Below, piece after piece: positions 26,769 to 46,363 of a stretch of 64,000 nt of DNA. Both the position numbers and the translations under genes were made by a program. Source of the stretch: Nitrosopumilaceae archaeon (lineage in GTDB: Archaea; Thermoproteota; Nitrososphaeria; Nitrososphaerales; Nitrosopumilaceae); assembly GCA_030038445.1 (NCBI GenBank), contig JASHOW010000025.1, positions 1,281 through 65,280 on the forward strand. Direction: 5' to 3'. The notes beneath the pieces were generated by a model that worked only from the letters and a program-made list of their open reading frames with translations, ran no database searches and was not told the origin of the DNA. Each line of letters begins with the position of its first letter. The first letter of the stretch is position 1.

Positions 26769-26870
26769 TTATCTTACATCCAAGATTAATGCACGATCAA
26801 CATCATCAACAATACAACGGCATTCATCGTCAGATTTATTTTGTGATTTTTTTATCATCATGTCCACCAT
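26769..26870 (-). CDS. Riboswitch leader ORF (33 aa) abutting tfb
   Basis: Manual translation MVDMMIKKSQNKSDDECRCIVDDVDRALILDVR*; TAA is immediately followed by the tfb ATG. Confidence 0.5.
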   Translation of the reverse strand: MVDMMIKKSQNKSDDECRCIVDDVDRALILDVR

Positions 26871-26877
26871 TATGCTG

Positions 26878-26943
26878 GTAGACATTATCAGCATCGCACG
26901 ATGCAGTTAAGGAGCTAGTTACTCCATGGCTAATGCCATAGCC
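26878..26943 (-). ncRNA. Fluoride riboswitch aptamer, copy 2
   Basis: GGCTATGGCATTAGCC...TTAACTGCATCGTGCGATGCTGATAATGTCTAC. Confidence 0.9.
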
Positions 26944-27051
26944 GCGTTCCATACTCAGGTGACAATATTAAATCTTATGAATGCATACGATCTTCGTCAT
27001 GATTACAAAATAGTATCATCGGTTTTTTAGTCGGAATTACGAAATAAGGTT

Positions 27052-27855
27052 TTGATGCTACAAATAGATGCAATATTTTCTGATTATGATGGTACGCTAA
27101 GCCCTTTTGCCGTAAACCGAGATAATGCACTAGTTCCGAGGCCATTGTACAAAACCCTTAGCATCGTTTCAAAAAAAATTCCTTTTTGTATCATCACTAC
27201 AAAGACTGTAAATTACATACAAGACAAGATAGAATTTTGTAAAGGAGTAGCAGGTATTGGAGGTTTGGAGATAAGCATTGGCGCCAAGATGATTTATCCA
27301 AGTGTATCTAGCCATACAAGAAAATCAATTCTTACTGTCTTTGATTTTGCAAGATCAGTCATGCATGATATGAAAGATGTGTTGTTGGAAGAAAAGAAAA
27401 CTGCAGGAGGAGAACTGCTAGGCTTTACAGTAGACTGGAGATTATCAAAAAATTGGGATTCATATAAAGAAGTAGTAAGACCACTGATACAAAAATCTAA
27501 GAGAGACGGTTTGTTTGTTCTAACCTATAGAGACCACCCATTTTTTGATGTATATGTTAAAAAACCAGACAAGGGAAAGGCACTGATTAAACTCAAAAAA
27601 GAACTACGCATAAATGGAAACATACTCTATCTTGGAGATTCGGAGAACGATAGCACGGCCTTCGAAAAAAGTGGCGTATCCATAGGAATTACACGAGAGG
27701 AAGTCAAACCACTCCTAAACTGCGAGTATCTTTTACCATATGATAATCTTAATGCTGCTCTACGAACACTCGTTAAAAACAACATGATATTTGATCCTGT
27801 GTTATTAAATTTAAAAAGAAATTCCACTTATGATTACACAAGCGATAAACAATAG
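27052..27855 (+). CDS. HAD-superfamily (IIB-like) phosphatase
   Basis: DYDGTL motif I, DKGKAL, GDSEND motif IV. Confidence 0.88.
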   Translation: MMLQIDAIFSDYDGTLSPFAVNRDNALVPRPLYKTLSIVSKKIPFCIITTKTVNYIQDKIEFCKGVAGIGGLEISIGAKMIYPSVSSHTRKSILTVFDFARSVMHDMKDVLLEEKKTAGGELLGFTVDWRLSKNWDSYKEVVRPLIQKSKRDGLFVLTYRDHPFFDVYVKKPDKGKALIKLKKELRINGNILYLGDSENDSTAFEKSGVSIGITREEVKPLLNCEYLLPYDNLNAALRTLVKNNMIFDPVLLNLKRNSTYDYTSDKQ

Positions 27856-27935
27856 CAAGTAAAAGTACGCCTGATAAAAATAAGAAAGATCAAAGATTGT
27901 ACCTACTATCATAATACTAGTAACTGAAGAAAAAA

Positions 27936-28577
27936 CTAGCCAAACATGACCCATCGTGTTAGTGAACGACGGCGCCTTCTTCGAGAAGAGGCCTCATCTC
28001 TTTTGAAAAAGAGCATAAAATTACTTGTTCTAGTATTTTTTATTGGAGCGTCTAGTTTCGGATAATTTGAATATTTGAAGCTAGAACAAGACAATGAGAA
28101 TACTTTGGCAAATAAATTTGGAACATTGGCGCTTCTCCATCTCACACATATTTCTCTTCCATTATTAATATGTCCAAATAATTCATGTGGATCGATGACT
28201 GAAATTTCTGGTTGGTCATATTCTAAAGACATAGAAGCTTGAGATATCGTTTCCACTCCAGGTAATTTTCCTGATTCATCAGTAAGAAATCTTGATAGAA
28301 ATGCTATAACGTGGTCTGAAAAAGATTTGTTCAAACTTTGTGCTTCTACATGATCATACTTGTTACAAAGATCGGGAAGTTCAGTATAATGAATTACTCT
28401 CCATGCAGATTCTTTATCTGTTTTATTTGACAGGCATGATATCAAATAATCAGAATCTCCTCTCCATGCAAGCCAGAGCTTTTTAGCTTCATCAAGTGCT
28501 ATCTCGGTTGGAAGTTTGAAATGGGCATAAATTCGTGTAGCCTGTGTCTCAAACTTTTTTTCCGAGTCTATGATCAT
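27936..28577 (-). CDS. Hypothetical protein
   Basis: 213 aa ORF with no recognised motif; Arg-rich tail. Confidence 0.5.
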   Translation of the reverse strand: MIIDSEKKFETQATRIYAHFKLPTEIALDEAKKLWLAWRGDSDYLISCLSNKTDKESAWRVIHYTELPDLCNKYDHVEAQSLNKSFSDHVIAFLSRFLTDESGKLPGVETISQASMSLEYDQPEISVIDPHELFGHINNGREICVRWRSANVPNLFAKVFSLSCSSFKYSNYPKLDAPIKNTRTSNFMLFFKRDEASSRRRRRRSLTRWVMFG

Positions 28578-28829
28578 ATACTACAAAATATTTATTTATT
28601 AGATTTAGGAACTTTTCTTAAATTTTTTTAATCTTCAAGTCATGAGTGTTCTATGAGTTAATATTGCCTAATCTCGTTTTTTCAAAATATTAACAGATGT
28701 TTTCAAGATGAAAAATGTAGAAGTATCTACAAAAATGAGAATCATACGACAAAGAAGAGAGAACCATCAAACTAAACAATGAGAAACAGAAGTGTTATAA
28801 GATTTTCAATTCTTAAATCATATAGAAAC

Positions 28830-30068
28830 ATGCCCAAGATAACCTCAATTAGTGGAACAGTTGTTTACAATAGCAGAGGGCACAAGACAATCGAGGTTAG
28901 TGTAATTTCTGACAACAAGTATCTTGGAAGAGTTTGTGCGCCGTCAGGAGCAAGTGTAGGTAAACATGAAGCAATAAATTTTCCAGACAATAATCCTCAA
29001 AAAAGCCTCGATATATTACGATCAAACGAAAAAAAGTTCATAGGGCTTGATCCCTCTGACTTGAAATCAATTCATGAGACATTGAGAAAAATAGATTCGA
29101 CTACAAATTATTCAGAGATCGGTGGGGCCGTTGCATTTTCTCTGACTATTGCATCAACAGAGTCAGCGGCAAGATCAGAAGGAGTTCCATTATTCAAGAT
29201 ATTGACCAAAGACGCTCATCTTAGACTACCATTTCCATTAGGCAATATTTTAGGCGGTGGTGCTCACGCCGGTATAGGAACCCCAGACATTCAAGAGATA
29301 TTGGTTTGTGCCATAGGATCAAAAACAATACGTGAATCTGCAGAAACAAATTTTTTGATACATCAAGAGCTTGGAAAGATGTTAGAGAGACATGATGCCA
29401 AGTTTACAAGAGGGAGGGGGGATGAAGGGGCATGGGCACCAAGAATAAACAATGACAAGGCTGTAGAATACTGTGCAGATACATGTGAAAAGTTGGGATA
29501 CACACTGGGTAAAGAAGTCTCATTGGGAATAGATTTTGCATCTTCGGTATTATGGAACGAGAAAAGGGGAAAATACGTCTATTCTAGACAAGGCATAGAA
29601 AGATCTCCAGAACAACAAATAGAATTTGTTTCAGAGATGATAAAAAAATACAAACTTGTTTGTGTGGAAGATCCAGTTCACGAAGACGCATTTGAAGACA
29701 TGGCAGAATTAACAAAAAAATTTCCGCGTATTCTTATAATTGGGGACGACATTGTGGTTACAAACCAAACACGACTGTCAAAGGCCATAAATACAAAATC
29801 ATGCAATGCTGTAATACTAAAGGTAAATCAGGCGGGAAGCCTGTATGATGCACTAGAATTTGCAAAATTGGCAAATAAAAACAACATGAAATTGATCACC
29901 TCACACAGATCTGGCGAGTCAACAGATAGCCACATATCTCACATAGGTCTTGCCACAAAATCAAATATGCTCAAAGTAGGTGTTGTGGGAGGAGAAAGAG
30001 TGGCCAAGATCAACGAATTGATTCGCATTTCTGAAGAAAATAACATACACAACATGGCAAATATTTGA
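28830..30068 (+). CDS. eno: Enolase (probably an extra copy)
   Basis: NSRG..T, APSGAS.G.HEA, GDEG, KVNQ.G, SHRSGES; start placed at MPKI. Confidence 0.95.
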   Translation: MPKITSISGTVVYNSRGHKTIEVSVISDNKYLGRVCAPSGASVGKHEAINFPDNNPQKSLDILRSNEKKFIGLDPSDLKSIHETLRKIDSTTNYSEIGGAVAFSLTIASTESAARSEGVPLFKILTKDAHLRLPFPLGNILGGGAHAGIGTPDIQEILVCAIGSKTIRESAETNFLIHQELGKMLERHDAKFTRGRGDEGAWAPRINNDKAVEYCADTCEKLGYTLGKEVSLGIDFASSVLWNEKRGKYVYSRQGIERSPEQQIEFVSEMIKKYKLVCVEDPVHEDAFEDMAELTKKFPRILIIGDDIVVTNQTRLSKAINTKSCNAVILKVNQAGSLYDALEFAKLANKNNMKLITSHRSGESTDSHISHIGLATKSNMLKVGVVGGERVAKINELIRISEENNIHNMANI

Positions 30069-30163
30069 TGAATCATTTACAATTAAGACGAACTATCAAA
30101 CATTAATGAACATATAGGATCTTGATATCTAAAAAAACGTTTTTGAATAATGGTGAGTGCTCT

Positions 30164-30427
30164 TTACCAATACGCGCTCTCGCTTTCAGTTGCTGTATTT
30201 TTTCTATCCATAGTGACATATTTTCTTATCTCATCAAGATCTTTGAATATTCCCTCAGGGGCAAAAACTGAAGGAGTCTTTGTAGTTGGGAGATCACCGC
30301 AGCAGCTTTCAGCAAATTTCCTCACATCATACTCCACATACTCAATCCCATTGCTTTTCAGAAGCATCATAGCTTGCTGAGATTTTTCCGAACCATCTAC
30401 CAAAAGAATTGGTTTGCGCTGCATCAT
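30164..30427 (-). CDS. Glutaredoxin-like small protein
   Basis: LL..NGIEY.EYDV...TPSVF pattern; no CxxC in the canonical position. Confidence 0.5.
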   Translation of the reverse strand: MMQRKPILLVDGSEKSQQAMMLLKSNGIEYVEYDVRKFAESCCGDLPTTKTPSVFAPEGIFKDLDEIRKYVTMDRKNTATESESAYW

Positions 30428-30662
30428 AAGAATTAAAGGATCTACAAAAATTAAGTCTTGTTAGAGTTAGTCACAGATGAGATATCATCTCCTAGTGTAT
30501 TGTACTATAGGTGATTATCTGTACCCAATAGAGAATGGAGGTATTTTCATATAATATTAATGATATACAGGACTTCTAACACAATTATTTAAAACTCAAC
30601 CCTCATTATCTGTGGCATACTTTTAACAGAATTTAATAATTGGAGGAATATGAGGTATCTCA

Positions 30663-31247: not shown

Positions 31248-31283
31248 GAATTAAATATTTTCCAATTTTTTTAATTTTTAGTC

Positions 31284-32176: not shown

Positions 32177-32193
32177 GTCTACTAATCCTCCAT

Positions 32194-32256
32194 GTAGACA
32201 TTATCAGCATCGCGCGATGCAGTTTAGGAGCTTATTCCATGGCTAATGCCATAGCC
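32194..32256 (-). ncRNA. Fluoride riboswitch aptamer, copy 3
   Basis: GGCTATGGCATTAGCCATGGAATAAGCTCCTAAACTGCATCGCGCGATGCTGATAATGTCTAC. Confidence 0.92.
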
Positions 32257-32367
32257 AACAGGTTAAAAATCCGAAATAGTAGATTTAAACTTTCAGACAT
32301 GTATACGAAATGGAGTTTCAAACCATAATCAATGTAAAATCCTAAATCAGAGAAATTTTAATTAGAT

Positions 32368-32793: not shown

Positions 32794-32795
32794 AA

Positions 32796-34832
32796 CTACA
32801 TTATCACAAAAAAAGTATACAGCATGACAAAAATGAATGCTACCATAATGTAGATAAGATATACAAATAACTTGCCTGGCATTATCTTTCTGGCAGCATG
32901 ATATGAGAGAGAAAGAGCATATTTTGTCAGTAGGTCATAAAGTTTTTTGAAAACATCCAAAACTTCTAGTTCTACGATGTATTCTTCTGGAGAAAGAATC
33001 ACAGGACGGCGAATGGCACCTACTTGTATTATCCTCTCTTTTGTCCTAAATAGAAAACTTAGCATGATTCTGATCGGAGTACTATAACCAAATGAGTTGT
33101 ATAATTCAAAAGTACTGGTTGGTTGGTTCTGCCCACTAAACCATCCATATGTTTTTCTTATCTTCCATTTTGCGCCCCACCGCGTTATGGCATATGGTAT
33201 AACTAAAAGACATAACATGAAGATTGCTACAAATGTAGGAGAGAAGCCTCCAAATGGACTTCCAGATAAGATTACAAAATGTGCCGGAATTCCCAAGAGA
33301 CCAGTAACAAAGATATCAAACGTTTTTTCTCGCAAGATCTGGTTTGCGCCGCTTGATGCAAGAAGAAATATTCCTGGTGCCAAAACTCCCAATGCGATTA
33401 TAAGAATTAGAAAATAGTACGAGCTTGCGCGTATGATCGGCATCTTCTTGATGTTGTTATTACCATTAGATTCAACCATCCCGGATAACAATACTCCAAA
33501 TCCATACACCTTTGTCATCGCTATAATTACTACTCCAGTAGCCAGAGCCACTATTGCTCCAATTATAGTGCCAACAATTTGGCTAGTAGTGTCGCCAAAT
33601 CTAAACGATTGAAATAATGACTCTAGTATCATCCATTCAGAAACAAACCCTGCAAGTGGTGGAACTGCTGCCAGTGAAAGTATGGTAGCCATCCCTGCCA
33701 GATATGTACCATCTTTTGCTGCCTTTGTTGAAGATCGATTGTTAAGATCAAAACTCTCTTTGAGTTTACTTTTCCACCCCATTATGAGGAATAACGAAGC
33801 TTTTGAAATAGAGTGAGAAAAGGCATGATATAGTGCTGCAATAAGAGCAAACCCACTGAGTAATGGCAGATTATAATATGACGCTAGTATATAGACGCCT
33901 ACTGCTACTATAATTAGTCCATTATTTTCTATTGTACTATACGCTGGTAGACCCTTAGAATGTTCTGATACGGAAGCAAAAAGAGCCCCCAATAACGCAG
34001 AGATTCCACCAATAACAAGTGTAATCCAACCCCACCACAGTTCGGAGTGGCCAAGATGTGACAAGATGTTGATGTAGCCATAAACACCCATGAGCGTCAG
34101 AGTAGCAGAGAGGATTGCAGATGCATTAGATGGAGCATTAGAGTGAGCGATTGGCAGCCATTCACTCATATGAAATGGCGCAATCCCCATCTTCAGTCCA
34201 AACCCTACAAGAGATGCAACAAATATCCATGAGAGGGTAATTTCACTTGCATGAATCGTGGAAGTCGAAAGAAAGTTAAAACTGCCTACTGATGAAAACA
34301 TGCCCACAAATGCTAGCATGACAAAAACTGTACTTGCTTCTCCAAAACCTAGAAAGAGAAAGGCAGCTTTTCGTATTACATCAGGTTTGCCTCTTCCTTG
34401 TAGGATCATGAAAAATGCACTTATGGTCATAGATTCCCAACCCACTAGGAATGAAATTGCATCACCTGCCAGAATTATAATCACCATAGAAAACATTGTA
34501 AGAACAAGTAATGACGATAATCCATTAGGATAGTCATCATATCGTAATGAGTACAGACATGTTCCAAACCATACAAGGCAAGAAATGAGCAGGAACAAAG
34601 AATTGAATGGAGTTAACAAAAATTCAAATGAGCTATTTTGTGTTACCTGCCACAAGACAAGATCAATTCTGTTAGCACCACCAAGCAACATCCATAATGA
34701 AAGAGATATCCCAAGTGCAGAACCTATTGTTCCCAATACATAACAAAAGATCTTTGAAATGCGTCCAATAGCAACAGCTGTGGCAAATGATACAAAGACT
34801 CCAAAAAGAATGATGACGGGTAGATAATCCAA
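32796..34832 (-). CDS. hyfB: HyfB/NuoL-like proton-translocating membrane subunit
   Basis: GWESM, K.G..PFH..WLP.AH..APS, AYSTIEN, PPL.GFVSEW. Confidence 0.85.
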   Translation of the reverse strand: MDYLPVIILFGVFVSFATAVAIGRISKIFCYVLGTIGSALGISLSLWMLLGGANRIDLVLWQVTQNSSFEFLLTPFNSLFLLISCLVWFGTCLYSLRYDDYPNGLSSLLVLTMFSMVIIILAGDAISFLVGWESMTISAFFMILQGRGKPDVIRKAAFLFLGFGEASTVFVMLAFVGMFSSVGSFNFLSTSTIHASEITLSWIFVASLVGFGLKMGIAPFHMSEWLPIAHSNAPSNASAILSATLTLMGVYGYINILSHLGHSELWWGWITLVIGGISALLGALFASVSEHSKGLPAYSTIENNGLIIVAVGVYILASYYNLPLLSGFALIAALYHAFSHSISKASLFLIMGWKSKLKESFDLNNRSSTKAAKDGTYLAGMATILSLAAVPPLAGFVSEWMILESLFQSFRFGDTTSQIVGTIIGAIVALATGVVIIAMTKVYGFGVLLSGMVESNGNNNIKKMPIIRASSYYFLILIIALGVLAPGIFLLASSGANQILREKTFDIFVTGLLGIPAHFVILSGSPFGGFSPTFVAIFMLCLLVIPYAITRWGAKWKIRKTYGWFSGQNQPTSTFELYNSFGYSTPIRIMLSFLFRTKERIIQVGAIRRPVILSPEEYIVELEVLDVFKKLYDLLTKYALSLSYHAARKIMPGKLFVYLIYIMVAFIFVMLYTFFVIM

Positions 34833-34836
34833 GGAT

Positions 34837-35619
34837 CTAAGTTTCTCCTTTTGATTTTATCATGTCTGTCTCCTGTCCTTTTACACATCTGTCCATGCAT
34901 AGTAACAAGCCCTCTAAGATCTGAATAGGAGTAGGCGGACAACCTGGAACAATTACATCTGTTGGTATCACATCTTGTACTGGGGAAACAAAACTTTCAG
35001 TGTCTTTGAATACTCCCCCGCTAATAGCACATGCTCCAATTGAAATCACAAATTTTGGCTCTGGCATGCTTTCGTAGGTTTGTTTCAAGACGTTTGTCAT
35101 GGCTTTATTTAATGCACCCACAACAACAAGTACATCTGCGTGTTTGGGTGAATTAGTAAAAAAGATCCCCAGTCTTGTCAGGTCATAATATGGATTAGCA
35201 AGATTTAGTACCTCAATGTTGCATGCATTACACGAACCTACATCTATCATCAAAATGTGAAATGATTTCTGAAATGTTTTTGCCTTTGTCTTAAAGGCGG
35301 CATAGAGGTCTTTATTTGCATCTTTATTTTGCAAGATTTTTGCCTGTAGTGCAGTTTTCCTAGATTTTGTACCATCCTCAAAGAAAAATGAGGCGTCAGA
35401 GCAACGCCTACAGTATATACATTTTCCAAGATCTATATTTGCCTCGTTTTCTATTGCTCCAGTAGGACACAGTTCTTTACCTACGGTCCAATTTGATTCC
35501 TGTACAGAAGTGGGTGGGACAGATTTTAGCGGTATCTCTTCTGGGGTTGGTTCCTTCTTAGGATATTTGGTAGTCAGTATTCCATTTTTAATTCCATGTA
35601 GAACCCAGAACTTGACCAA
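34837..35619 (-). CDS. Fused 4Fe-4S (HyfH/NuoI-like) and small subunit (HyfI/NuoB-like)
   Basis: CPTGAI, CIYCRRC, GSCNAC..E, GACA.SGG, PGCPP. Confidence 0.85.
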   Translation of the reverse strand: MVKFWVLHGIKNGILTTKYPKKEPTPEEIPLKSVPPTSVQESNWTVGKELCPTGAIENEANIDLGKCIYCRRCSDASFFFEDGTKSRKTALQAKILQNKDANKDLYAAFKTKAKTFQKSFHILMIDVGSCNACNIEVLNLANPYYDLTRLGIFFTNSPKHADVLVVVGALNKAMTNVLKQTYESMPEPKFVISIGACAISGGVFKDTESFVSPVQDVIPTDVIVPGCPPTPIQILEGLLLCMDRCVKGQETDMIKSKGET

Positions 35620-35628
35620 TTTTTCACC

Positions 35629-36966
35629 TCACCGATCCGAATCCGCATATGAAAGGCCATAACTTTCATACGCAAATTGAAAGTCGGTAAACACGTTACC
35701 CTCCAAACTCTTTGCAAGTGGTAACCAGTTGACTAGGGAAGATGGCCTCATGTGTAGTAATTTAATTCGACCTGTTTTATCTATCTGAACTGCATGAATT
35801 AGATCGCCACTTGGACTTTCAATTCTACAGAATGAAAAAGATGCTTGTTCATCATATCGCTCGGAAGAAACATCCAGTTTGCTTGGTGCATGACCATCAA
35901 CTGGCATCTTGTCCAAGAGTTGTTCTAATAGGAATACACTAGACTGGATTTCGTGAATTCTAACCATCGTCCTAGCCATGGTGTCCCCTTCTTCATCAGT
36001 CTTTAAATCTACAAAGACATCATTGTATGGCTCTATAGGATACGTCAGCCTATCATCCCATTCTATTGCTGAAGCTCGTGCGGACGGACCAACAGCTCCC
36101 ATTTTTAACGCATCTTGATTTGATAATCTTGCAGTATTTTGTAACCTATCTAGAAATATTCTAGAAGAAAGAAAATAAGTTACAAGATTAGAAAACTTGT
36201 TTGTTATTTCTTTGATCTCGTTTAAAAGTGATCTTCTCTCTTCCTTTGAGAGAAGATTGTGAGAGACGCCACCGACTCTGTTAAATCCAAATAGATACCT
36301 ATGACCAAAATATTTTGCATTAATTCGAAGTACTCTCTCTTTTAACACATGTGTTTCAGCAGCCGAGACATTTTGAGTAGCAGCCTCAGACAGGCGACCA
36401 AAGACATGCAGGTGGTTGTAGATTCTTTCTAGTTCAATTGCTATGGCTCTAATCCATTTCGACCTTGAGGGCACTTCCAGATTCAAAATAGTTTCCACTG
36501 CTGTTACAAAACATGTCGAGTATGATGCAGAAAAATTTCCAGCGGATCTTTCTATTAAAAGTAATGCATCATTAGGCTGCATTCCAATTACTTTTCTTTC
36601 GATTCCTCGTTTTTTGAAATTGATTTGTGGTATGATTTTGACAATGCGTTCACCGTACGTTATTAATTTAAATCCTCCAGATTCTGGTACTCCAGAGCTT
36701 ACTGGGCCATAGGGAAAAGCAAAGATTCCATACCCTTCGACTTTTCCTCCCATATCGAGGTCTATCTGATGTCCAGGCTGTACATCTTTAAGGAATATTT
36801 CTGATTCTTCACCAAGTCTGAGAGGAATATCACTTAGGATTGTTTTTCTGTTTTCAATATCTGATAGTAATGCCAGTGTCCTTCCATCTATTTCAAATAT
36901 AGATGAGATTTGGACATTAGTGTTGATCTCGGCAACTTGTTTTTGTATAACAAAATTAGGAATCAT
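35629..36966 (-). CDS. Hydrogenase large-subunit homolog (HyfG/HycE/NuoD-like) lacking Ni-binding cysteines (Ehr type)
   Basis: GPV..G..E, ELERIYNHL, E.P.G; L1 site reads ERSAGNFS and L2 site reads YGLSYADSDR. Confidence 0.85.
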   Translation of the reverse strand: MIPNFVIQKQVAEINTNVQISSIFEIDGRTLALLSDIENRKTILSDIPLRLGEESEIFLKDVQPGHQIDLDMGGKVEGYGIFAFPYGPVSSGVPESGGFKLITYGERIVKIIPQINFKKRGIERKVIGMQPNDALLLIERSAGNFSASYSTCFVTAVETILNLEVPSRSKWIRAIAIELERIYNHLHVFGRLSEAATQNVSAAETHVLKERVLRINAKYFGHRYLFGFNRVGGVSHNLLSKEERRSLLNEIKEITNKFSNLVTYFLSSRIFLDRLQNTARLSNQDALKMGAVGPSARASAIEWDDRLTYPIEPYNDVFVDLKTDEEGDTMARTMVRIHEIQSSVFLLEQLLDKMPVDGHAPSKLDVSSERYDEQASFSFCRIESPSGDLIHAVQIDKTGRIKLLHMRPSSLVNWLPLAKSLEGNVFTDFQFAYESYGLSYADSDR

Positions 36967-36983
36967 TTTGCACTCTCCATTTT

Positions 36984-38456
36984 TTATTTCATTCCTGATA
37001 CAGCATGGAGAAATATAGGAAACATGTAAATCCCAATCACTAAAGATATGCCAAGATTTATCATAGGAATCAAAATAGAAAGTCGATTTTCTTTTTTAGG
37101 TTTTGAAATCGACTTCCCTTCATAGTCATGAACAGACAATGTGGAATTTTGAGAAGATTCTTCTGTAGATACGTTAGTCTGTTGACCAAAGACCATCAAA
37201 GTTGTCTGCCTATTCAGGCCAATGAAGGCGTAGATATAGATGACGGCAAGAATTATTGTTAATAGAAAATTTCCAGACAACATTGCTTGCGACATGATCA
37301 TGAATTCACCTAAGAAGACGCCGAAGGGTGGAGCTCCTGTAACTGACAGACAAGAGAGAGTGAAAAGATATCCTGTAGATTTCAGTCTATGAATAACACC
37401 TTGGATATCACTCATTTTTGTAGTATTGTACTCAGCAACCATATTTCCAGAAGAATAGAAAGCAGCAGACTTGGCAAAAGCGTGAGATACTATCTGAATA
37501 ATTGCTCCAAGAATCCCAATTCCTCCAAGCGCAATACCAACTAGGATTATTCCCATATTTTCCATGCTTGAATATGCTAACATTCTTTTGTAGTTTCGCT
37601 GATGTCCAATTATTATTGCGGCAATTAGAGATGTCATGACACCAAAGCCTATCACTAAATTTTGCAGATCAGCAAATGTAGTGGTTCCTTGTAAGAGAAC
37701 AAACGTTCTACTAAAGGCATAAAGTGAAGTTGGTAGAAGAACAGCCGAGAACATGGCGCTGATTGGCGACGGTGCTTCGCTATGTGCATCTGGGAGCCAT
37801 GCATGCATTGGCGCAATTCCTGCCTTTGTGCCATACCCCACAAGCGCAAATCCGACTGCCATAGACATGATCATTAGGTTTTTTGGTGGCTGGTGCAATA
37901 ATGTAGAAAATTGCAATGTTCCCTGAGAAGAGAATACAAATATGACAGATAGGAGAGATATCACAAGCCCAGCTGAAACTATCAGTGTATACCTCCATGC
38001 TGCCTCTATACTTGTTCGTTCCCTCTCAAGTGCTATCAGCAGAGCGCTGGTAACAGTGGTTGCCTCTACTGCAAGCCAGACAAAGCCCAGATCATTTACT
38101 GTAACGGCAAGAAGCATAGTAAAGGCAAAAAGATTCATCAGGCAATAATACCACCTAAATCGAAGAAAGGATTCTTTTATTCTCTTCAGGTAAAAGATAG
38201 AATATGCAACTGACGTTAGAAAAATAGCAGATATCGTTATTGACATTATCCTAGTCAAGCCATCAACATAGAAGTAACCGTACGTTCCAGAAGGTTCTGA
38301 AATTAATATGATAAGAGAGGCAGTAACAGATATGGCAGCCATGACAAGCGAAGATACCATTTCCACGCCTTTCTTAGGTAATAATGAAATTAACGCTCCA
38401 GATAATGGAGCTCCTAATAATATTAAAAGTAAAAATTCAGGTCCCATCTCAACCAC
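36984..38456 (-). CDS. hyfF: HyfF/NuoN-like membrane subunit
   Basis: EATT..SA, EAAWRY, GYGTK.G.APMH.WLPDAHSEAP, KRMLAYSS.E. Confidence 0.88.
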   Translation of the reverse strand: MVEMGPEFLLLILLGAPLSGALISLLPKKGVEMVSSLVMAAISVTASLIILISEPSGTYGYFYVDGLTRIMSITISAIFLTSVAYSIFYLKRIKESFLRFRWYYCLMNLFAFTMLLAVTVNDLGFVWLAVEATTVTSALLIALERERTSIEAAWRYTLIVSAGLVISLLSVIFVFSSQGTLQFSTLLHQPPKNLMIMSMAVGFALVGYGTKAGIAPMHAWLPDAHSEAPSPISAMFSAVLLPTSLYAFSRTFVLLQGTTTFADLQNLVIGFGVMTSLIAAIIIGHQRNYKRMLAYSSMENMGIILVGIALGGIGILGAIIQIVSHAFAKSAAFYSSGNMVAEYNTTKMSDIQGVIHRLKSTGYLFTLSCLSVTGAPPFGVFLGEFMIMSQAMLSGNFLLTIILAVIYIYAFIGLNRQTTLMVFGQQTNVSTEESSQNSTLSVHDYEGKSISKPKKENRLSILIPMINLGISLVIGIYMFPIFLHAVSGMK

Positions 38457-39108
38457 TCAACTGATCCAGATCCGATGGTTCTAGTGTTTTGAATGCATCT
38501 CTTTGCGCAGAAAGAATAACGCCGATGATCACAACTCCCATCACATCAAGCACTACAGCAAATTCCGTTAAGAGCTGTATTCCTGGGGCAATCAAAGCTC
38601 CCATATACAAAATACCATTTTCTTCTTGTATGTATCCGCACATTTGTGTAAGCGAGTTTTTTCTTGTAATAATCAGAAGAAATCCGAGTAAAAGAAGAAC
38701 GAATGGAATCGATATTTCAGGATTTGAAAAATATGGCAACACAACAGATTTGAATATAGCATATCCAATTATGATGATGATAATGCCTGTCAATACAAGT
38801 GACGGAGTTTTCTGGCTTGTACCAGTTTCTCTAAGCTTATGTCTGAAGTGTTTTACTTGGTAGAGCATAACTAACGGAAACACAATGCCACGCATGACTC
38901 CTGTTATAATAGCAAGGTAGAGGAGATTCAGATCGTCTGTGTGTAAAAACAAAATAACTATGAGTGCAGTAATTAGTAGGGATTGGATTGCTATGGCACG
39001 TATTGTTGGATCTACAAAGGATTGACCTTGCATATAGAGACTAGACAGGAGTACAGATATTCCTAGAAAACCTACTATTTCCTCGTAAAATGGAACTACA
39101 AAGACCAA
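38449..39108 (-). CDS. hyfE: HyfE-like membrane subunit
   Basis: Seven TM helices, Q..GY..EENG, E..V.LD. Confidence 0.8.
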   Translation of the reverse strand: MVFVVPFYEEIVGFLGISVLLSSLYMQGQSFVDPTIRAIAIQSLLITALIVILFLHTDDLNLLYLAIITGVMRGIVFPLVMLYQVKHFRHKLRETGTSQKTPSLVLTGIIIIIIGYAIFKSVVLPYFSNPEISIPFVLLLLGFLLIITRKNSLTQMCGYIQEENGILYMGALIAPGIQLLTEFAVVLDVMGVVIIGVILSAQRDAFKTLEPSDLDQLSG

Positions 39109-39109
39109 T

Positions 39110-40075
39110 TTACGTCACTTTTCCTCCTAAAAATAGCGCAAGAATGGAAAGTAATGCTAAACTAAAGGAAATTGAGAGAAAATCCAATATTTTGAAGAGG
39201 CGCAGCTTGGCAAATGTTTCTTCTATTATAACTATAATAACAATCAGGGCAAGCAGTTTAAAAAACAGGGTACCAACTGAATAAAGTGCGCCAGTTACAC
39301 TTACATCCCCAGACATCCACCAGGGAATAACGAATACATTAAGAAACACAGCCATCAAAAGAAATTGTTTCATGTATCCTCCCCATCTTGATATGGCAAG
39401 CAGTTTGCCGGAATATTCTATTACCTTCGCATCATCTATCATGCCAAATTCTACAAGACCTGAGCTTTCTACTGGGAGTCTTCCTGTTTCAACTAAGATT
39501 AGCATGAAGAAGGCAGCCATAACAAGGATATGAGTAGCAGAAAGATACCAAGAGGCAGAACTTGCCAATAGATTGTTTGTCGTATACGGATTGTTTGTAC
39601 CTGTAATCATGGCAACTGCAATGAAGATCATGATTAGTGTTGGTTCCGCCAATGCGGTAAATGAAGCGCTACGGCTTGCGCCCATTGTTGAATAATTAGT
39701 ACGAGCATCTATTGCGGCTATAATACTAATTACACCTGCAAACCCAAACATGAGAGCTCCTCCAAGTAGATCCAACAATATACCATATGGAAGAGGATAT
39801 GGTGTCACGATAGGAACTACTAGAGAGATTACTAGATATGCCACAAATGAAACTAGGGGAGCTATGACAAAGAACGATGATGATTTTTCAGGTACAACAA
39901 CTTCTTTTCTTAGAAGTTTAGATAGATCATAATACGGTTGAAAGATTGATGGGCCATGTTTGGATTCAATCATGGATTTTAAACGATTTATGATTCCAGC
40001 AATTAAAGGAGAAAGAAACAACACTGTACCAATTTGAATTATATTTATCAGTTGAAGCGTGATTGGGTCACTCAT
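39110..40075 (-). CDS. hyfC: HyfC/HycD/NuoH-like membrane subunit
   Basis: GPSIFQPYYDL.KL..KE, GASR, ETGRLPV, EYSG. Confidence 0.88.
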   Translation of the reverse strand: MSDPITLQLINIIQIGTVLFLSPLIAGIINRLKSMIESKHGPSIFQPYYDLSKLLRKEVVVPEKSSSFFVIAPLVSFVAYLVISLVVPIVTPYPLPYGILLDLLGGALMFGFAGVISIIAAIDARTNYSTMGASRSASFTALAEPTLIMIFIAVAMITGTNNPYTTNNLLASSASWYLSATHILVMAAFFMLILVETGRLPVESSGLVEFGMIDDAKVIEYSGKLLAISRWGGYMKQFLLMAVFLNVFVIPWWMSGDVSVTGALYSVGTLFFKLLALIVIIVIIEETFAKLRLFKILDFLSISFSLALLSILALFLGGKVT

Positions 40076-40257
40076 TTTTTGTCACCTTTTTTAAAAGAAT
40101 GATTTATTCTATATGCGACAATATATTTTGAAGTAGGTTGCTCAATAATAAAATCATCGTATATTGAATTCAATCTCTCGTTATAATCCAATATACTATA
40201 GTCAAGCATCCATGTCTCCAGTATTTTTTGATTTTGGTTCACTTTTGATCTTTCCAC
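40072..40257 (-). CDS. Riboswitch leader ORF (61 aa) coupled to hyfC
   Basis: GTG start 5 nt after the aptamer; ATGA overlap with hyfC. Confidence 0.5.
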   Translation of the reverse strand: MERSKVNQNQKILETWMLDYSILDYNERLNSIYDDFIIEQPTSKYIVAYRINHSFKKGDKK

Positions 40258-40262
40258 TATCT

Positions 40263-40322
40263 GGAGACATTATCATCCCTTTAGGGCAGTTTAGACGTAT
40301 AGTCAAGGCGAATGTCATCGCC
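40263..40322 (-). ncRNA. Fluoride riboswitch aptamer, copy 4
   Basis: GGCGATGACATTCGCC...TAAACTGCCCTAAAGGGATGATAATGTCTCC; canonical GGCG/CGCC P1. Confidence 0.88.
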
Positions 40323-40542
40323 CTATTGAATTAGTAATGGTGCCTAGCTAAGATTAAAAATGTTGCTCTGAAAGAATTCATTAACTAATCTGATCCTATT
40401 TGTCATTCATCCTTGTTTAAGTATATAACTCATTTTTCTCATAAGGTACGAAAGGTTTTCCGGCGATTTTATCCGCGTCCATATCACACATAACTCTCAG
40501 ATTTAAAAGATAGATTTAACATGTTGTAAACCAACTTTAGTA

Positions 40543-41613: not shown

Positions 41614-41623
41614 ATCTAGTCAT

Positions 41624-41764
41624 TTATTGTTTGGCATATTGATCAAGGTTGAAAATACTTTCAGAACCGCAGCTTGGGCAATTCCACACTATCCTAGTTC
41701 CTATATACTTTGAATATACAACGCCACAATGTGCACATACTCTAAGGCTACTGGTCTTAACCAT
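41624..41764 (-). CDS. Small Zn-ribbon protein (46 aa, not in the ORF track)
   Basis: MVKTSSLRVCAHCGVVYSKYIGTRIVWNCPSCGSESIFNLDQYAKQ*; overlaps the ferredoxin stop. Confidence 0.65.
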   Translation of the reverse strand: MVKTSSLRVCAHCGVVYSKYIGTRIVWNCPSCGSESIFNLDQYAKQ

Positions 41765-42257: not shown

Positions 42258-42328
42258 TATTCTTTGCCTCCAAAAACTTGTTGTTAACTTCTTTTACTGT
42301 AACACAGAATACAGCGGTTTCATATTCG

Positions 42329-42847
42329 TTATTTTGCATTGTGTTTCATCTCACTTTGGTTAAATTTTATTTTGATTAAATTTGATATTAAAAATGCTAG
42401 TTGAAATACGTTAAGATCTTTTTGTACAAAGACAGATAGAATTTCCTCGCTTATGGGAAAATCTATTGATACCAATTTGTCTGAGTACGATATAGTGAAG
42501 TTTATTGCACCAAAGTATTTGTCGTATGCTTTTTTCATCCTATTTCCTAATGCAATCTGTGCAAGTAGGATTTCTTGTTCTTTCGGATCTAAGATTTCCC
42601 ATTGTATTTTTTTATTTTGTACAAGCACTGTTCCTTTGAAATCTATTATTCCAGCAAATATTATTTTATGATCAAGGTTGATAATTTCATTACAGATAGA
42701 TTCCAGCATATCGGTTTGAATCAATTCGGTTCTTTGTTTGATTGAGTTAATACTATTGTCATGTGCTATAGTTGAAGATACTAGGCCGTTATGACAGTCC
42801 ATACTGGTTTTTCTCCTCTCTATTCTTGATTTTGATTTTTTATTCAT
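42329..42847 (-). CDS. Roadblock/longin-like thaumarchaeal domain protein with ~46 aa N-terminal extension
   Basis: C.EI..LD..I.FAGIID..G...D..FG pattern; directly downstream of a riboswitch. Confidence 0.6.
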   Translation of the reverse strand: MNKKSKSRIERRKTSMDCHNGLVSSTIAHDNSINSIKQRTELIQTDMLESICNEIINLDHKIIFAGIIDFKGTVLVQNKKIQWEILDPKEQEILLAQIALGNRMKKAYDKYFGAINFTISYSDKLVSIDFPISEEILSVFVQKDLNVFQLAFLISNLIKIKFNQSEMKHNAK

Positions 42848-42867
42848 TGGTCTACCTGCTTTGCATT

Positions 42868-42965
42868 GGTAGACATTATCAGCTTCTTCTAGAGCAGTTT
42901 AGGATTCTCCATGGCTAATGTCCTAGCCTAATCTAATATATCATCATTCACATTTTTAAAGTTTT
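42868..42965. repeat. 98-bp direct repeat (promoter plus riboswitch), first copy
   Basis: Matches 46366-46463 with one mismatch (42951 C versus 46449 T). Confidence 0.9.
42869..42928 (-). ncRNA. Fluoride riboswitch aptamer, copy 5 (conserved U7 replaced by G)
   Basis: GGCTAGGACATTAGCC...TAAACTGCTCTAGAAGAAGCTGATAATGTCTAC. Confidence 0.82.
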
Positions 42966-43190
42966 TTGTCATTGTAACAATTCGATTTGAAATACTGAAT
43001 TCTTTTCCATTGTTATTGTAATAACTAAGATCTAGGGTAGATAAAACAAGAAAAGAACCAAATGGTAAACTATTCATCTAGACATAGATCAATTCTTTGA
43101 TATTGGTATTAGAGAATCTACATAAACGGCATGATGTGGCAATACAAAAAACCATGAAAAATGATTTTTTGGTTAGTAAAATTCATCGTC

Positions 43191-43697
43191 TTAATGATGT
43201 GCCCCAAATTTTTCCATGCCTCTACTGTAGAAATCAAGAAACGCCTCGAAATCTACAGGCTCGTCTAAAATTTCTGCCATCTTTATTACTTTATCTACTA
43301 CAACAGCACACTGTTGTCTGAAATTATTCTCATTAAATTCTATTACAGTCAATTTTGTCTTTATACTTTGTATTTCCTCTAGATTATCATTAACTATCAG
43401 TATAACTTTCAATCCTTTTCCTTGTGCATAGCCTATTTCCTGATTAATCAGACTTGAATTAAGAAAATCCGAAGTAAGAACCGCAATAAAGCAGATGGAT
43501 AAGCGAATCATATCTTTTATTTCGTCAAAAATAAAATTACCATAAGATTCACTATTTGACATATAAGCCCCAAATCCTTTTTCCCCGAGCATATGTTCTA
43601 AAACAGACGCTTTTTCACAATCTTCTTTGGCATAACATACAAATACTTTAAATTTATGGTGCGGTTTCTCTGGTTTTCCTGTATTACCTTGACTCAA
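43191..43697 (-). CDS. Stand-alone TIR-domain protein
   Basis: KVFVCYA.ED, FIAVLT.DF..S...NQEIGYA with the putative catalytic Glu. Confidence 0.8.
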   Translation of the reverse strand: MSQGNTGKPEKPHHKFKVFVCYAKEDCEKASVLEHMLGEKGFGAYMSNSESYGNFIFDEIKDMIRLSICFIAVLTSDFLNSSLINQEIGYAQGKGLKVILIVNDNLEEIQSIKTKLTVIEFNENNFRQQCAVVVDKVIKMAEILDEPVDFEAFLDFYSRGMEKFGAHH

Positions 43698-43801
43698 TTT
43701 TTATCTCCTCTGTTACAATTAGACTTAGCATTTGGCAAGTGCGATCTATAGTCACAGCTAAGTTTTTTGTAAGAAAAATTTGTACCCAGTTTGTATTTCA
43801 T
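43694..43801 (-). CDS. Riboswitch leader ORF (35 aa) coupled to the TIR gene
   Basis: MKYKLGTNFSYKKLSCDYRSHLPNAKSNCNRGDKN*; TTGA overlap with the TIR start. Confidence 0.45.
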   Translation of the reverse strand: MKYKLGTNFSYKKLSCDYRSHLPNAKSNCNRGDKN

Positions 43802-43827
43802 TTGTCTATCTACCTAAATCCCATTCG

Positions 43828-43892
43828 GCAGACATCATCAGCACCTTTTCGGGAGCGGTTTTGGCTTTTACACCAAGGCTAATGTCATAGCC
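43828..43892 (-). ncRNA. Fluoride riboswitch aptamer, copy 6
   Basis: GGCTATGACATTAGCC...AAAACCGCTCCCGAAAAGGTGCTGATGATGTCTGC. Confidence 0.88.
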
Positions 43893-44190
43893 ACTTTTTA
43901 TTCGCTAGATGATTTTTTAAGTTTTGCTATATGTCAGAATTTGTTGCGATTTCATTTTGAAATCATGGGTTTTGATCAGAGCTGCAAACTAATCTTTTAA
44001 TTCTACAGATAGAAGTAATATTTTCTAACTAGGATGGAGAACCTATAACGTATAGAAAAGATCTATAGTGGAAAAAGTCCAGGAGACAGAATCGTATTCC
44101 ACGTAAGAGGAGAACTAAACAGTTTATGTCAGTAAGATGGACTAGTTCTCAGATAAATGTTCATCAAGACAAAAATAACTTGGTTTCGAA

Positions 44191-45360
44191 TTATTTTGTT
44201 TTAGCAAGTATTACTGCTCCAGCCAAGCTAAATAGTGCCGCGAATCCAAAACCATACGATGGAGAAAATACAGTCCACAACACGCCTACTATGGTACTTG
44301 ATACAAAATCACCTAATCCATTCACAGTGCCTAGAACGCCATAACCTATTGTAACGGATTTCTTTTCTAACATACCTCCCGATACGGCTCCTTCAAGTGC
44401 GTCTACTCCAGATACATATAGTCCTGAAATTGAAAAGAGTACGACAAATGTCCAAATATCTGGATGTAGGAAAATAAAGCCCACAAAACATATAGTAGCT
44501 AGTAGATATGTTGTGACTAGAACTCTCTTCCTTCCCATTCTGTCTCCAAGATAGCCTAACGGGAAAGATGCGGCTGCATAGACCACATTTCTTACAATGT
44601 AAAAAGATGCAGACAATATTGATGCTTTCAATAAACCAAATTCTGGGGTTAGACTAGTTGTAGCATAGAGTATAAGTAATGTAGGGGCAAAATCACCTAC
44701 TCCGAATATACCCACCCCAAGCAAAAAGTTTTTGAAATTCTTTGGTAGATCTCGCATACTTGAGAAGAATCTCACATTATCATTTTTTTTGGCAAATTTA
44801 TCTTTGACAAAAAATGCAAAGAGAAGTGCGGCAAATACTGCAGGTATGACAGAATACCACATGATCTCTCGGTAATTAATAAGTGGAAGTATTACAAGAG
44901 CGGCTACTGGTCCACATATAGCACCAAGTGTATCGCCTGCTCTGTGTAACCCAAATGCCTTACCAAGATCGTTTGCATCAACAGACTCTACCAGAATTGC
45001 ATCGCGTGGAGGACCTCTAATTCCCCTCCCAAACCATCCAAGTACACGCCCAAATAGTACTTGCAAGAAACCTGAGGAAGTCGCCATAATTATTGGCATC
45101 AAGGATGTCAATAGATAACCCAAGACACTGAACTGTTTCTTCTTCCCTACCTTGTCAGAATAATAGCCAGATCCCATCTTAGTGAAGCTTGATGCTGCAT
45201 CAGATGCTCCCTCTATCAATCCCAAGGCAGCTGCACCTATGCCCATCGTTGCGAGAAAAGCCGGCAGTATAACAGTGACTGCCTCATGACTAAAGTCACT
45301 TAAGAAACTTGTGGCACTCATAGATGCCACATTCCTATTAAGCCAGTTTGTTTTTTTCAT
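44191..45360 (-). CDS. MFS transporter
   Basis: Twelve TM helices, G..SDKVG.K, GRGIRGPPRDA, G.LGDRMGRK. Confidence 0.92.
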   Translation of the reverse strand: MKKTNWLNRNVASMSATSFLSDFSHEAVTVILPAFLATMGIGAAALGLIEGASDAASSFTKMGSGYYSDKVGKKKQFSVLGYLLTSLMPIIMATSSGFLQVLFGRVLGWFGRGIRGPPRDAILVESVDANDLGKAFGLHRAGDTLGAICGPVAALVILPLINYREIMWYSVIPAVFAALLFAFFVKDKFAKKNDNVRFFSSMRDLPKNFKNFLLGVGIFGVGDFAPTLLILYATTSLTPEFGLLKASILSASFYIVRNVVYAAASFPLGYLGDRMGRKRVLVTTYLLATICFVGFIFLHPDIWTFVVLFSISGLYVSGVDALEGAVSGGMLEKKSVTIGYGVLGTVNGLGDFVSSTIVGVLWTVFSPSYGFGFAALFSLAGAVILAKTK

Positions 45361-45520
45361 AATTGATTATTACTGTCACTTGTTGTAGAATCACGCGAAA
45401 CAACACAAAAACCATTCGCGATATGTTAATGGAGAAACGAGTATTCCTCAAAGTACGTGATTCGTCCAAAGTGTATCTCATTTTTACTATATTTTTATCC
45501 AACATGTACCTAGATTCCAT
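45338..45520 (-). CDS. Riboswitch leader ORF (60 aa) overlapping the MFS start
   Basis: ATG 3 nt after the aptamer; 23-nt overlap with the MFS gene. Confidence 0.45.
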   Translation of the reverse strand: MESRYMLDKNIVKMRYTLDESRTLRNTRFSINISRMVFVLFRVILQQVTVIINYEKNKLA

Positions 45521-45523
45521 CAG

Positions 45524-45591
45524 ATAGACATTATTAGCAGAGCATCTTTGCGAGCAGTTTAGGAGCTTATTCCATGGCTAATGCCATAGCC
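45524..45591 (-). ncRNA. Fluoride riboswitch aptamer, copy 7
   Basis: GGCTATGGCATTAGCCATGGAATAAGCTCCTAAACTGC...GCTAATAATGTCTAT; first 38 nt identical to copy 3. Confidence 0.88.
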
Positions 45592-45702
45592 TACTTAAGT
45601 AGCTTTTAGCATTACTTTTAATCTTTCTTTTTTGTAAATTTTTGTCCAGATTATGTGTGTATTAATTCCATGTCTTTCCAAAGATCCAGATTAAGAAAAC
45701 TG

Positions 45703-45903
45703 CTATGAATCTTCCCATTGAATCTCATCTAATATTTGGTGGATCTCTTTTTCATAAGAGAGAGTTAACTTTCCATTCATTTTCAGTACAAAGTTTTCTG
45801 CCCAGCTTTGTGCTGCCCACAAAGCAGCCTCTTTTCCCAATTTAGGATGTTTTGTACGATAATATTCATATTGTTTTCTTATTCCTTTTTCAAGGTCTTT
45901 CAT
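45703..45903 (-). CDS. Small hypothetical protein
   Basis: ATGA overlap with the AsnC-like gene. Confidence 0.55.
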   Translation of the reverse strand: MKDLEKGIRKQYEYYRTKHPKLGKEAALWAAQSWAENFVLKMNGKLTLSYEKEIHQILDEIQWEDS

Positions 45904-46166
45904 ATCATCGTCTTACCTTCTTGTTCTTCGTTGACCAACATGGTTGTAGTTGAGGTTATCTTGTCGATTTTTCTAATTTCTTTGAGAATGTCTTTCATAT
46001 CATTCATGCTATTGCATTCTGCTCTTACGACTATATCATATACGCCGTTTACTCCTTGTATTTCGTATTTTACAGATTGATCATTCCTGTTGATTCCTTT
46101 GATTGTTCTGATTATTTCAACCTCCGAACCCGGATTATTAGTTAATAAGATGTACACAACTGTCAT
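45900..46166 (-). CDS. Lrp/AsnC ligand-binding (RAM) domain protein
   Basis: YILL...PG.E.E, V.GVYDIVV, IRKID.I.ST.TM; start placed at MTVVY. Confidence 0.8.
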   Translation of the reverse strand: MTVVYILLTNNPGSEVEIIRTIKGINRNDQSVKYEIQGVNGVYDIVVRAECNSMNDMKDILKEIRKIDKITSTTTMLVNEEQEGKTMI

Positions 46167-46363
46167 GTTTTTCCCCTTAGAAATGTGCTCAAGATGGACT
46201 TTGAAGGCTGTTTGAACGTACAACAAAAATAAGACTCGAGATGTTTGCTATGTAGTTTGATTTGTGAAAAGACATAACTTTTTAATGATAAAATATTTTG
46301 ATTACATGTTCCTCCTACTATGCTTGAATTTAGTTCTTTCATGCTATCTACCCATTTTTTCAT
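46163..46363 (-). CDS. Riboswitch leader ORF (66 aa) coupled to the AsnC-like gene
   Basis: ATG 3 nt after the aptamer; ATGA overlap at 46163-46166. Confidence 0.5.
   Translation of the reverse strand: MKKWVDSMKELNSSIVGGTCNQNILSLKSYVFSQIKLHSKHLESYFCCTFKQPSKSILSTFLRGKT

Follow-up and report, generated by a model that had tools for sequence, protein, structure and literature searches.

How can one kind of ion-sensing RNA element govern genes as unlike as a transcription factor, a membrane complex and a transporter, and what role is played by the short open reading frames (ORFs) that lie between the element and several of these genes? These questions are raised by a 64,000-nucleotide (nt) stretch of contig JASHOW010000025.1, here called the window, from a Nitrosopumilaceae metagenome-assembled genome (MAG; 1.49 Mb, 130 contigs, 89.7% complete). 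An Rfam scan with the fluoride riboswitch model RF01734 finds eight copies in the window (RS1 to RS8), all on the minus strand and packed into 21 kb (25491-46435), and these are the sole RF01734 matches in the whole genome. RS1, RS3 and RS5 are fused directly to a cargo gene, and the other five switches are followed by leader ORFs of 30-59 amino acids (aa). We consider it probable that the elements are translational ON switches that pass their signal to the cargo by termination-reinitiation via these leaders, which we call relay ORFs.

In the mechanism that we propose, each element would be a self-contained transcription unit consisting of a TATA/B recognition element (BRE)-like box, an aptamer starting approximately 25 nt downstream, and an expression platform. 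Without fluoride, a hairpin of 8-10 base pairs (bp) between the 3' tail of the aptamer and a downstream anti-tail would block the initiation region; with fluoride, the pseudoknot would hold the tail, the anti-tail would be freed, and ribosomes would start at one AUG. As only this platform AUG would be gated, a cargo would be either fused to it or fed through a relay ORF. Fusion would suit proteins that tolerate a Lys/Asn-rich N-terminus (e.g., signal-anchored secreted proteins), and a non-fused cargo would receive its ribosomes from the relay ORF by termination-reinitiation at an ATGA-, TTGA- or TAATG-type junction. The relay peptide would then not be a selected product, only the open frame and the position of the stop being kept. 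To our knowledge, archaeal RNA polymerase does not use hairpin terminators of the bacterial type, which makes translational control the likely route.

The loci were compared across 63 sampled species or genomes of one genus, including this genome, and cargo genes were annotated by Pfam. Members of the genus mostly carry one to three riboswitches; expanded clusters occur only here (eight copies) and in the congener G032 (seven by Rfam). All eight aptamers in the window align over positions 1-64 of the RF01734 model, and four of them (RS2, RS3, RS4, and RS6; 36.4-40.2 bits) reach the curated gathering score of 34 bits. The P1 loop (GACAU/GGCAU) is complementary to the tail AUGUC in 8/8 copies, so that the pseudoknot can form, and this loop/tail pair co-varies relative to the Rfam consensus GGaGU/ACUCC. 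An association with fluoride-toxicity genes is also found: the same cassette precedes crcB in the genus, directly or via a leader, and the island also contains genes for enolase and a HAD phosphatase. The switches are predicted to respond to fluoride. The aptamers of the genus (window and loci L004-L060) additionally carry a small hairpin between P1 and the AAAC linker, seen as an insertion in the Rfam alignments. This hairpin, whose stem co-varies (GGA/UCC, GAC/GUC, GAAAU/AUUUC, GGAC/GUCC, GGU/ACC), seems to have been added to the fluoride aptamer specifically in this lineage.

An alignment of the eight units places a TATA/BRE-like box (AAAnnTTTAAAAA-like) about 25 nt before the aptamer, with the platform following. 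The 3' tail of the aptamer, AUGUCUACC, is also the pseudoknot strand, and its complement is the downstream anti-tail GGUAGACA (GGUAGAC), which lies 12-20 nt downstream of the tail (44 nt in RS4) and is followed by the AUG after 0-6 nt. The tail/anti-tail helix overlaps 4/5 pseudoknot nucleotides, and the two structures are mutually exclusive because the same tail strand serves both. Structure prediction returns this hairpin as the minimum-energy fold for each of the 59 distinct platform sequences in the genus (median free energy -12.5 kcal/mol; median z -5.3 versus shuffles), with the AUG placed within the predicted helix or 0-6 nt 3' of it, apart from three outliers. When 56 of these sequences were aligned, with RS4 left out, 93.8% of the alignment cells were paired, compared to 28-46% when the pairing partner was slid. 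Double compensatory changes within the helix are few, a count that is conservative because a few rows were misaligned by MAFFT; RS4, outside the alignment, adds CUCCAG/CUGGAG, a change of tail and anti-tail that is compensatory relative to the genus consensus. The position in RS4 that is homologous to the AUG of the G032 hyf cassette is now a GUG within the 44-nt loop, an AUG stands directly after the new anti-tail, and all candidate starts of RS4 share one frame.

The cassette continues into the coding sequence. Codons 2-8 after the platform AUG consist of 67% A, versus 35% in 785 long ORFs of the genome, and only 0.8% of those long ORFs reach the 67% level. These A-rich codons account for the MNKK starts, and the best reading of the Lys-rich extension is that the cassette carries it as an RNA-level feature, whose translation is incidental. 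The sequence-only reading of this locus had described such in-frame extensions at copies 1 and 5, and both are present, on the 509-aa cupredoxin-domain protein of RS1 and on the RS5 protein, whose DUF6659 match starts at residue 47. A strong genome-wide Shine-Dalgarno (SD) signal, by which to judge whether the anti-tail might also serve as an SD, was sought as well: GAGG, GGAG, GTGA, and AGGT are enriched only approximately twofold, in a MAG that does not include the 16S 3' end. As a separate observation, the genus-consensus loop between tail and anti-tail holds a mini-ORF, AUG GAA AUU AAA UAG, whose stop lies within the anti-tail (L005-L057); its AUG is in frame with the leader in RS7 and RS8.

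The relation between switch and cargo was examined in 74 riboswitch instances gathered genus-wide, every non-duplicate instance being classified without selection—that is, as a direct fusion if a protein of at least 100 aa begins at the platform AUG, or as a leader case if a leader stands before a cargo that is 70 aa or longer. Direct fusions account for 42 instances and leader-plus-cargo arrangements for 28; the other four comprise two instances that run off a contig end, RS3 with its 77-aa protein, and one gene that is truncated in an unpublished genome, and none of the 74 is clearly uncoupled. The leader AUG is the platform AUG in 5/5 window cases and in the 28 genus cases. The sequence-only reading assigned leaders of 33, 61, 60, and 66 aa to RS2, RS4, RS7, and RS8; the frames and stops are correct, but those lengths use in-frame upstream starts, and the AUG that is conserved genus-wide just 3' of the anti-tail, from which we count, gives 30, 45, 55, and 59 aa (35 aa in RS6). 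All five stop/start geometries that it listed (TAA-ATG, ATGA, TTGA, a 23-nt overlap, and ATGA, for RS2, RS4, RS6, RS7, and RS8, respectively) are found in the sequence.

No in-frame stop interrupts the 1079 codons of the 28 non-duplicate leaders, whereas the two alternative frames contain 105 and 96 stops. The offset from leader stop to cargo start is -4 in 19/28 cases, -1 in two, and 0, +1, or +3 in three, the remaining four being -11, -17, +7 (RS7; -23 on the longest frame), and +14; as a baseline, 459 closely spaced same-strand ORF pairs of this genome, tallied roughly, yield 18% at -4 and 2% at -1. When the window leaders were shuffled, a stop fell within -25 to +20 nt of the cargo start with P = 0.015, 0.006, 0.098, 0.029, and 0.046, the product of which is approximately 1e-8, and the joint probability for 14 leaders picked as mutually diverged is near 1e-19. 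Genus-wide, leader lengths range from 13 to 66 aa, and the only common feature is the cassette-encoded run of A-rich first codons. Five of the genomes (G011, G012, G019, G028, and G034) are flagged as unpublished and contribute one of the four direct crcB fusions (L060), a direct fusion of the 346-aa family (L027), two of the three 20-aa crcB leaders (L011 and L035), the truncated-gene case (L004), and one of three TIR leaders plus one direct fusion (L016); no conclusion depends on these genomes alone, and 25 leaders with the same pattern remain without them.

Open frames and stop positions persist in relatives while the amino acid sequences drift, in agreement with the earlier proposal that the leaders act as coupling ORFs and with its expectation that orthologous loci should keep an open frame without amino acid conservation. 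The leader of the hyf-like operon, for example, retains 21% aa identity and its stop, versus 87% identity for the cargo. The corresponding values are 41% versus 65% for the TFB leader (30 vs. 47 aa) and its cargo, 51% versus 69% for AsnC, and 18-52% versus 70-81% for the 30-aa group of crcB leaders, and pN, a measure of non-synonymous difference, is 0.36-0.56 in diverged leader pairs versus 0.07-0.20 in cargos. Even leader pairs at 45-60% nt identity, near saturation, are still open and end at the cargo start. Leaders before different cargos have no similarity to each other, as had been noted from the sequence. That the frame is kept without the peptide suggests that the leaders are translated and that cargo expression depends on that translation.

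The crcB loci show how such leaders can arise. In four genomes crcB is fused directly to the platform AUG; otherwise it stands behind leaders of at least eight different forms (16-66 aa), nearly all of which terminate in an ATGA at the start of crcB. The gene driven by the switch in many genomes encodes a signal-anchored protein of approximately 390, 346, or 494 aa, and its stop forms an ATGA overlap with crcB or with the following gene; in relatives this first cistron either overlaps crcB by ATGA or is separated from it by a stretch of 35-50 nt. Several crcB leaders begin with the recognizable N-terminus of such a protein, and the L046 leader joins the first 17 residues of the 390-aa protein to its last few and has inherited the ATGA junction. 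By sequence comparison, these crcB leaders are relics of a deleted first cistron and not new ORFs from intergenic DNA; the suggestion that intervening DNA is held open, as a possible route to de novo peptides, is not supported in that form. At DUF6659, the stretch that is fused in frame in this genome is a separate 54-aa leader in G032 with a 17-nt overlap with the cargo, so that a frame change interconverts the two states.

Several results weigh against a relay by termination-reinitiation. Covariation support for the helix is modest, the helix being nearly invariant, and the helix of RS7 is the weakest (-4.6 kcal/mol). RS1, RS5, RS7, and RS8 score below the gathering score (28.4-32.5 bits, E 4e-5 to 8e-4), and RS5 and RS8 have AGG where the consensus of the P1-loop motif (GGCUAGGACAUU) has AUG. 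The RS7 junction is the least canonical, with either the 23-nt overlap or alternative MFS starts 7 and 16 nt after the leader stop. The genomes of the genus are related, so that all genus-wide counts overstate independence; short leaders (12-20 codons) are individually not significant in the shuffles; and in relic leaders the ATGA junction was inherited and not newly evolved. Finally, SD-like motifs stand 8-10 nt before the cargo starts of RS4, RS6, and RS8 (GGUGA, GAGGAG, and GGGG), and structure prediction finds the initiation regions of these three cargos no more occluded than with shuffled leader bodies, whereas burial in leader structure would have pointed to coupling by unfolding; the cargo could therefore initiate independently of the switch.

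On that last point builds the view that the leaders are decaying remnants or chance ORFs without a role, the cargo initiating by itself with or without riboswitch control. The relic crcB leaders and the non-significance of short leaders also favor it, but it would not explain why nearly saturated leader pairs remain open up to the cargo start, why all of the crcB leader forms reach crcB with no uncoupled case among the 74 instances, or why the shuffle probabilities of 14 diverged leaders multiply to such a small value, and we regard it as quite unlikely. The same SD-like motifs would equally fit de novo initiation on a transcript protected by leader translation. Polarity is an established phenomenon in archaeal operons, and leader translation could act at the transcript level by shielding nascent RNA from premature termination or decay (of the FttA/aCPSF1 type), an effect that can coexist with termination-reinitiation. 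Such shielding also requires a frame that is open up to the cargo and fits the frame, divergence, and shuffle data equally well; it leaves unexplained, however, the precision of the stop, with its excess at -4 over the genomic baseline, since a ribosome halting 10-30 nt short would shield the transcript nearly as well. We regard this reading as rather unlikely. A functional micro-protein (e.g., a small membrane or regulatory peptide of the fluoride response) would account for the residues kept in AsnC and TIR leaders, which share 39-59% aa identity between genomes with a ratio of non-synonymous to synonymous substitution (dN/dS) of 0.26-0.59, and for a hydrophobic stretch in the RS7 leader. 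We nevertheless judge it highly improbable, given that leaders of different cargos are dissimilar, that crcB is served by unrelated leaders, and that the same stretch is fused in one genome and separate in another. The MFS and AsnC leaders have no homologue among 5.8 billion protein clusters, where only similar lengths were considered, and a search of the five window leaders against their own genome and all fetched loci returned a single match, between the AsnC leader and its G032 counterpart (E 7e-4). A conserved run of regulatory codons or a conserved peptide, as would be expected of attenuation, was not found in the leaders.

Termination-reinitiation through a relay ORF has a close parallel in bacteria. 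The B12 riboswitch of Mycobacterium tuberculosis ppe2 masks the initiation region of an upstream ORF (uORF), uPPE2, which overlaps the ppe2 start by AUGA; experiments showed that cargo expression requires translation of the uORF and runs mainly via termination-reinitiation, and that the uORF serves as a "landing pad" (Kipkorir et al., 2024; PMC11260477). The loci described here share with it, by prediction, a uORF start within the riboswitch-controlled initiation region and a stop that overlaps or abuts the cargo start. At ppe2, a bacterial OFF switch responds to B12 at a single locus, whereas the present system is archaeal, is predicted to sense fluoride and to be ON, and includes 28 leader cases before many unrelated cargos; the ppe2 evidence is experimental, whereas ours is comparative, with only the frame and stop position conserved. 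The class of mechanism is thus known from Mycobacterium, and what is new is its archaeal, fluoride-sensing, multi-copy, and predicted ON form, with dozens of natural versions that show the target of selection.

In Haloferax volcanii, strict termination-reinitiation occurs at overlapping gene pairs and is lost with gaps of approximately 20 nt, and in both H. volcanii and Escherichia coli genes are coupled at -4/-1 overlaps, for which short 3' regions of the upstream gene suffice (PMC6728339, PMC10666635). The stop/start geometry is the same as here (ATGA, TGATG-type), but those pairs consist of two real genes, often of one complex, whereas the upstream partner here is a short, non-conserved ORF whose only apparent role is to link a riboswitch-gated AUG to the gene. 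The trpL attenuator and the mgtA Mg2+ riboswitch with mgtL likewise place a short ORF in a regulatory 5' leader, where its translation affects downstream genes; they sense via specific codons and alternative terminator hairpins, whereas the leaders here have no conserved codon pattern or peptide and end on the cargo start. Known RF01734 loci resemble the window in their aptamers and typical genes (crcB, a nearby enolase, and a formate-hydrogenlyase-like complex) and differ from it in that the window has eight copies in 21 kb, the extra hairpin after P1, a conserved AUG-proximal platform, and cargo that includes TFB, TIR, AsnC-like, and winged helix-turn-helix (wHTH) proteins. The fluoride riboswitch of Thermococcus kodakarensis is stated to be the only experimentally characterized natural archaeal riboswitch (PMC8241225). 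For ammonia-oxidizing archaea, the only literature that we found on fluoride riboswitches is a 2017 survey that counts one riboswitch in Thaumarchaeota (PMC5473149); we found none on relay ORFs behind archaeal riboswitches.

The sequence-only reading had further proposed a portable cassette that captures genes. Portability of the architecture is supported: the same order of promoter, aptamer, and AUG, including the A-rich first codons, stands before at least 12 unrelated cargo families, and cassette similarity does not track cargo. The TIR cassette of G006 is 84% identical to a G032 cassette that precedes a 192-aa protein, the TFB cassette of G032 is closest to the cupredoxin cassette of G033, and three cassettes of G032 have an identical tail-loop-anti-tail segment but different aptamers. 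Gene capture fared less well. RS5 and RS8 are 93% identical over the aligned stretch from promoter to tail, but this near-identity was rejected as proof that a whole cassette was transposed, since the identity stops at the tail and excludes the anti-tail and AUG; the pattern resembles gene conversion, with sub-segments exchanged among cassettes already in place. A pre-capture state, in which an orthologue of the cargo lacks the riboswitch, was sought in the 63 genomes for the MFS and hyf-like cargos and was not found. The exchange pattern is consistent with modular evolution, without being proof that a whole cassette jumps before a new gene. It is possible, and we put it forward tentatively, that the fluoride regulon grows by recombining a unit of promoter, aptamer, helix, AUG, and A-rich codons, with each recruitment or cistron loss leaving behind a translated spacer that selection retains for nothing but its open frame and a stop on the next start codon.

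The features of the window are collected in the table. Enolase, the HAD phosphatase, a ferritin-like protein, and a Rieske protein are encoded between the units on the other strand; a ferredoxin gene follows the DUF6659 gene of RS5, and a 66-aa ORF (45703-45903) follows the AsnC-like gene of RS8. The Pfam assignments of the six RS4 cargo genes are NADHdh, none (a 219-aa protein), Proton_antipo_M, Complex1_49kDa, Oxidored_q6, and Proton_antipo_M. Among the 63 genomes this operon is shared only with G032 (87% identity), where the riboswitch and leader are also present, and no orthologue of the MFS transporter was found in the other 62 (best 32-40% identity); accordingly, the cargos of the island are accessory genes, probably of horizontal origin. 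The hyfC-like genes (44-47% identical) of Spirochaetales, DHVE2, Thermoplasmata, Verrucomicrobiota, and Nitrospira MAGs are likewise preceded by fluoride aptamers, which extends the link between fluoride and this membrane complex across domains; at these loci (L092-L099), L092, L095, and L099 have Rfam matches, and L093, L094, and L096-L098 only the P1-like motif.

Table. Riboswitches, relay ORFs, and cargo genes in the window.
Feature	Position	Strand	Details
Cupredoxin-domain protein, 509 aa	23940..25469	-	Fused to RS1 platform AUG; begins MNKK
RS1 aptamer	25491..25567	-	31.1 bits; TATA-like box near 25590; anti-tail 25483-25476; platform AUG 25469
TFB (TFIIB repeats and Zn ribbon), RS2 cargo	25767..26768	-	Pfam
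RS2 relay ORF	26769..26870	-	33 aa from AUG 26870 or 30 aa from AUG 26861, same frame; TAA ends at 26769, TFB ATG directly after at 26768
RS2 aptamer	26872..26952	-	38.6 bits; TATA-like box near 26972; tail/anti-tail helix 26885-26860 encloses AUG
Winged-helix protein, 77 aa	31943..32176	-	Fused to RS3 platform AUG, no leader
RS3 aptamer	32188..32265	-	36.4 bits; TATA-like box near 32289
RS4 cargo, six co-oriented genes	32796..40075	-	Group-4-hydrogenase/complex-I-like (hyf) membrane complex
RS4 relay ORF	40072..40257	-	45 aa from AUG 40209 or 61 aa from GUG 40257, same frame; stop overlaps hyfC-like start, ATGA 40075-40072
RS4 remodelled platform	40212..40270	-	Tail pairs over 10 bp with anti-tail CUGGAGACAU 44 nt downstream
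RS4 aptamer	40257..40331	-	38.5 bits; TATA-like box near 40360; tail CUCCAG instead of CUACC
DUF6659 protein, 172 aa	42329..42847	-	In frame with RS5 AUG, 46-aa extension; Pfam match from residue 47
RS5 aptamer	42863..42937	-	32.5 bits
TIR-domain protein, RS6 cargo	43191..43697	-	Pfam
RS6 relay ORF	43694..43801	-	35 aa; TTGA overlap with TIR gene
RS6 aptamer	43822..43901	-	40.2 bits; TATA-like box near 43920
MFS transporter, RS7 cargo	44191..45360	-	Pfam
RS7 relay ORF	45338..45520	-	55 aa from AUG 45505 or 60 aa from AUG 45520; ends 45338, MFS ATG 45360, 23-nt overlap with longest MFS frame
RS7 aptamer	45518..45600	-	28.4 bits, weakest score of the eight
AsnC/Lrp ligand-domain protein, RS8 cargo	45900..46166	-	88 aa from ATG 46166
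RS8 relay ORF	46163..46363	-	59 aa from AUG 46342 or 66 aa from AUG 46363; ends 46163, AsnC-like ATG 46166, ATGA overlap
RS8 aptamer	46361..46435	-	32.2 bits

Three further observations were made alongside these features. An ATGA overlap joins the stop of the RS1 cupredoxin gene to the small ORF that follows it (window 22574-25469). In a Nitrososphaerota-like MAG whose hyfC-like protein is 81% identical (L076:2105-2500), a fluoride aptamer is followed by two small ORFs (approximately 75 and 27 aa), the second of which overlaps the GTG start of the hyfC-like gene by GTGA, giving a two-step relay. On the minus strand, RS5, RS6, and RS8 share a motif, ATTTCAAA ... AAATCG, 30-40 nt upstream of the TATA-like box (at about 42975-43000, 43935-43960, and 46475-46500, respectively). 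With RS5 and RS8 being recent copies, this amounts to only about two independent occurrences. One of the regulators under switch control (TFB, wHTH, or AsnC-like) may bind to the motif.

Gene control by natural riboswitches in archaea is almost unstudied, and the loci described here supply a testable rule: the switch gates one AUG, from which a gene is reached either by direct fusion or by way of a relay ORF whose stop lies at the gene's own start. This makes it possible to predict which small ORFs downstream of a riboswitch are translated and deserve annotation, and it explains Lys/Asn-rich N-termini as an RNA-level feature. The dozens of natural variants (i.e., fusions, relays, and relics) could be used to dissect archaeal termination-reinitiation, and the predicted regulon would place general and specific transcription factors (TFB, wHTH, and AsnC-like) under direct ion sensing. 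If the tentative account of growth by recombining modules is true, relay ORFs would be a general and predictable by-product of archaeal translational riboswitches, and they would maintain a reservoir of peptides that are translated but free of constraint, out of which new proteins or N-terminal extensions may arise, as the DUF6659 fusion in this genome and the corresponding leader in G032 illustrate.

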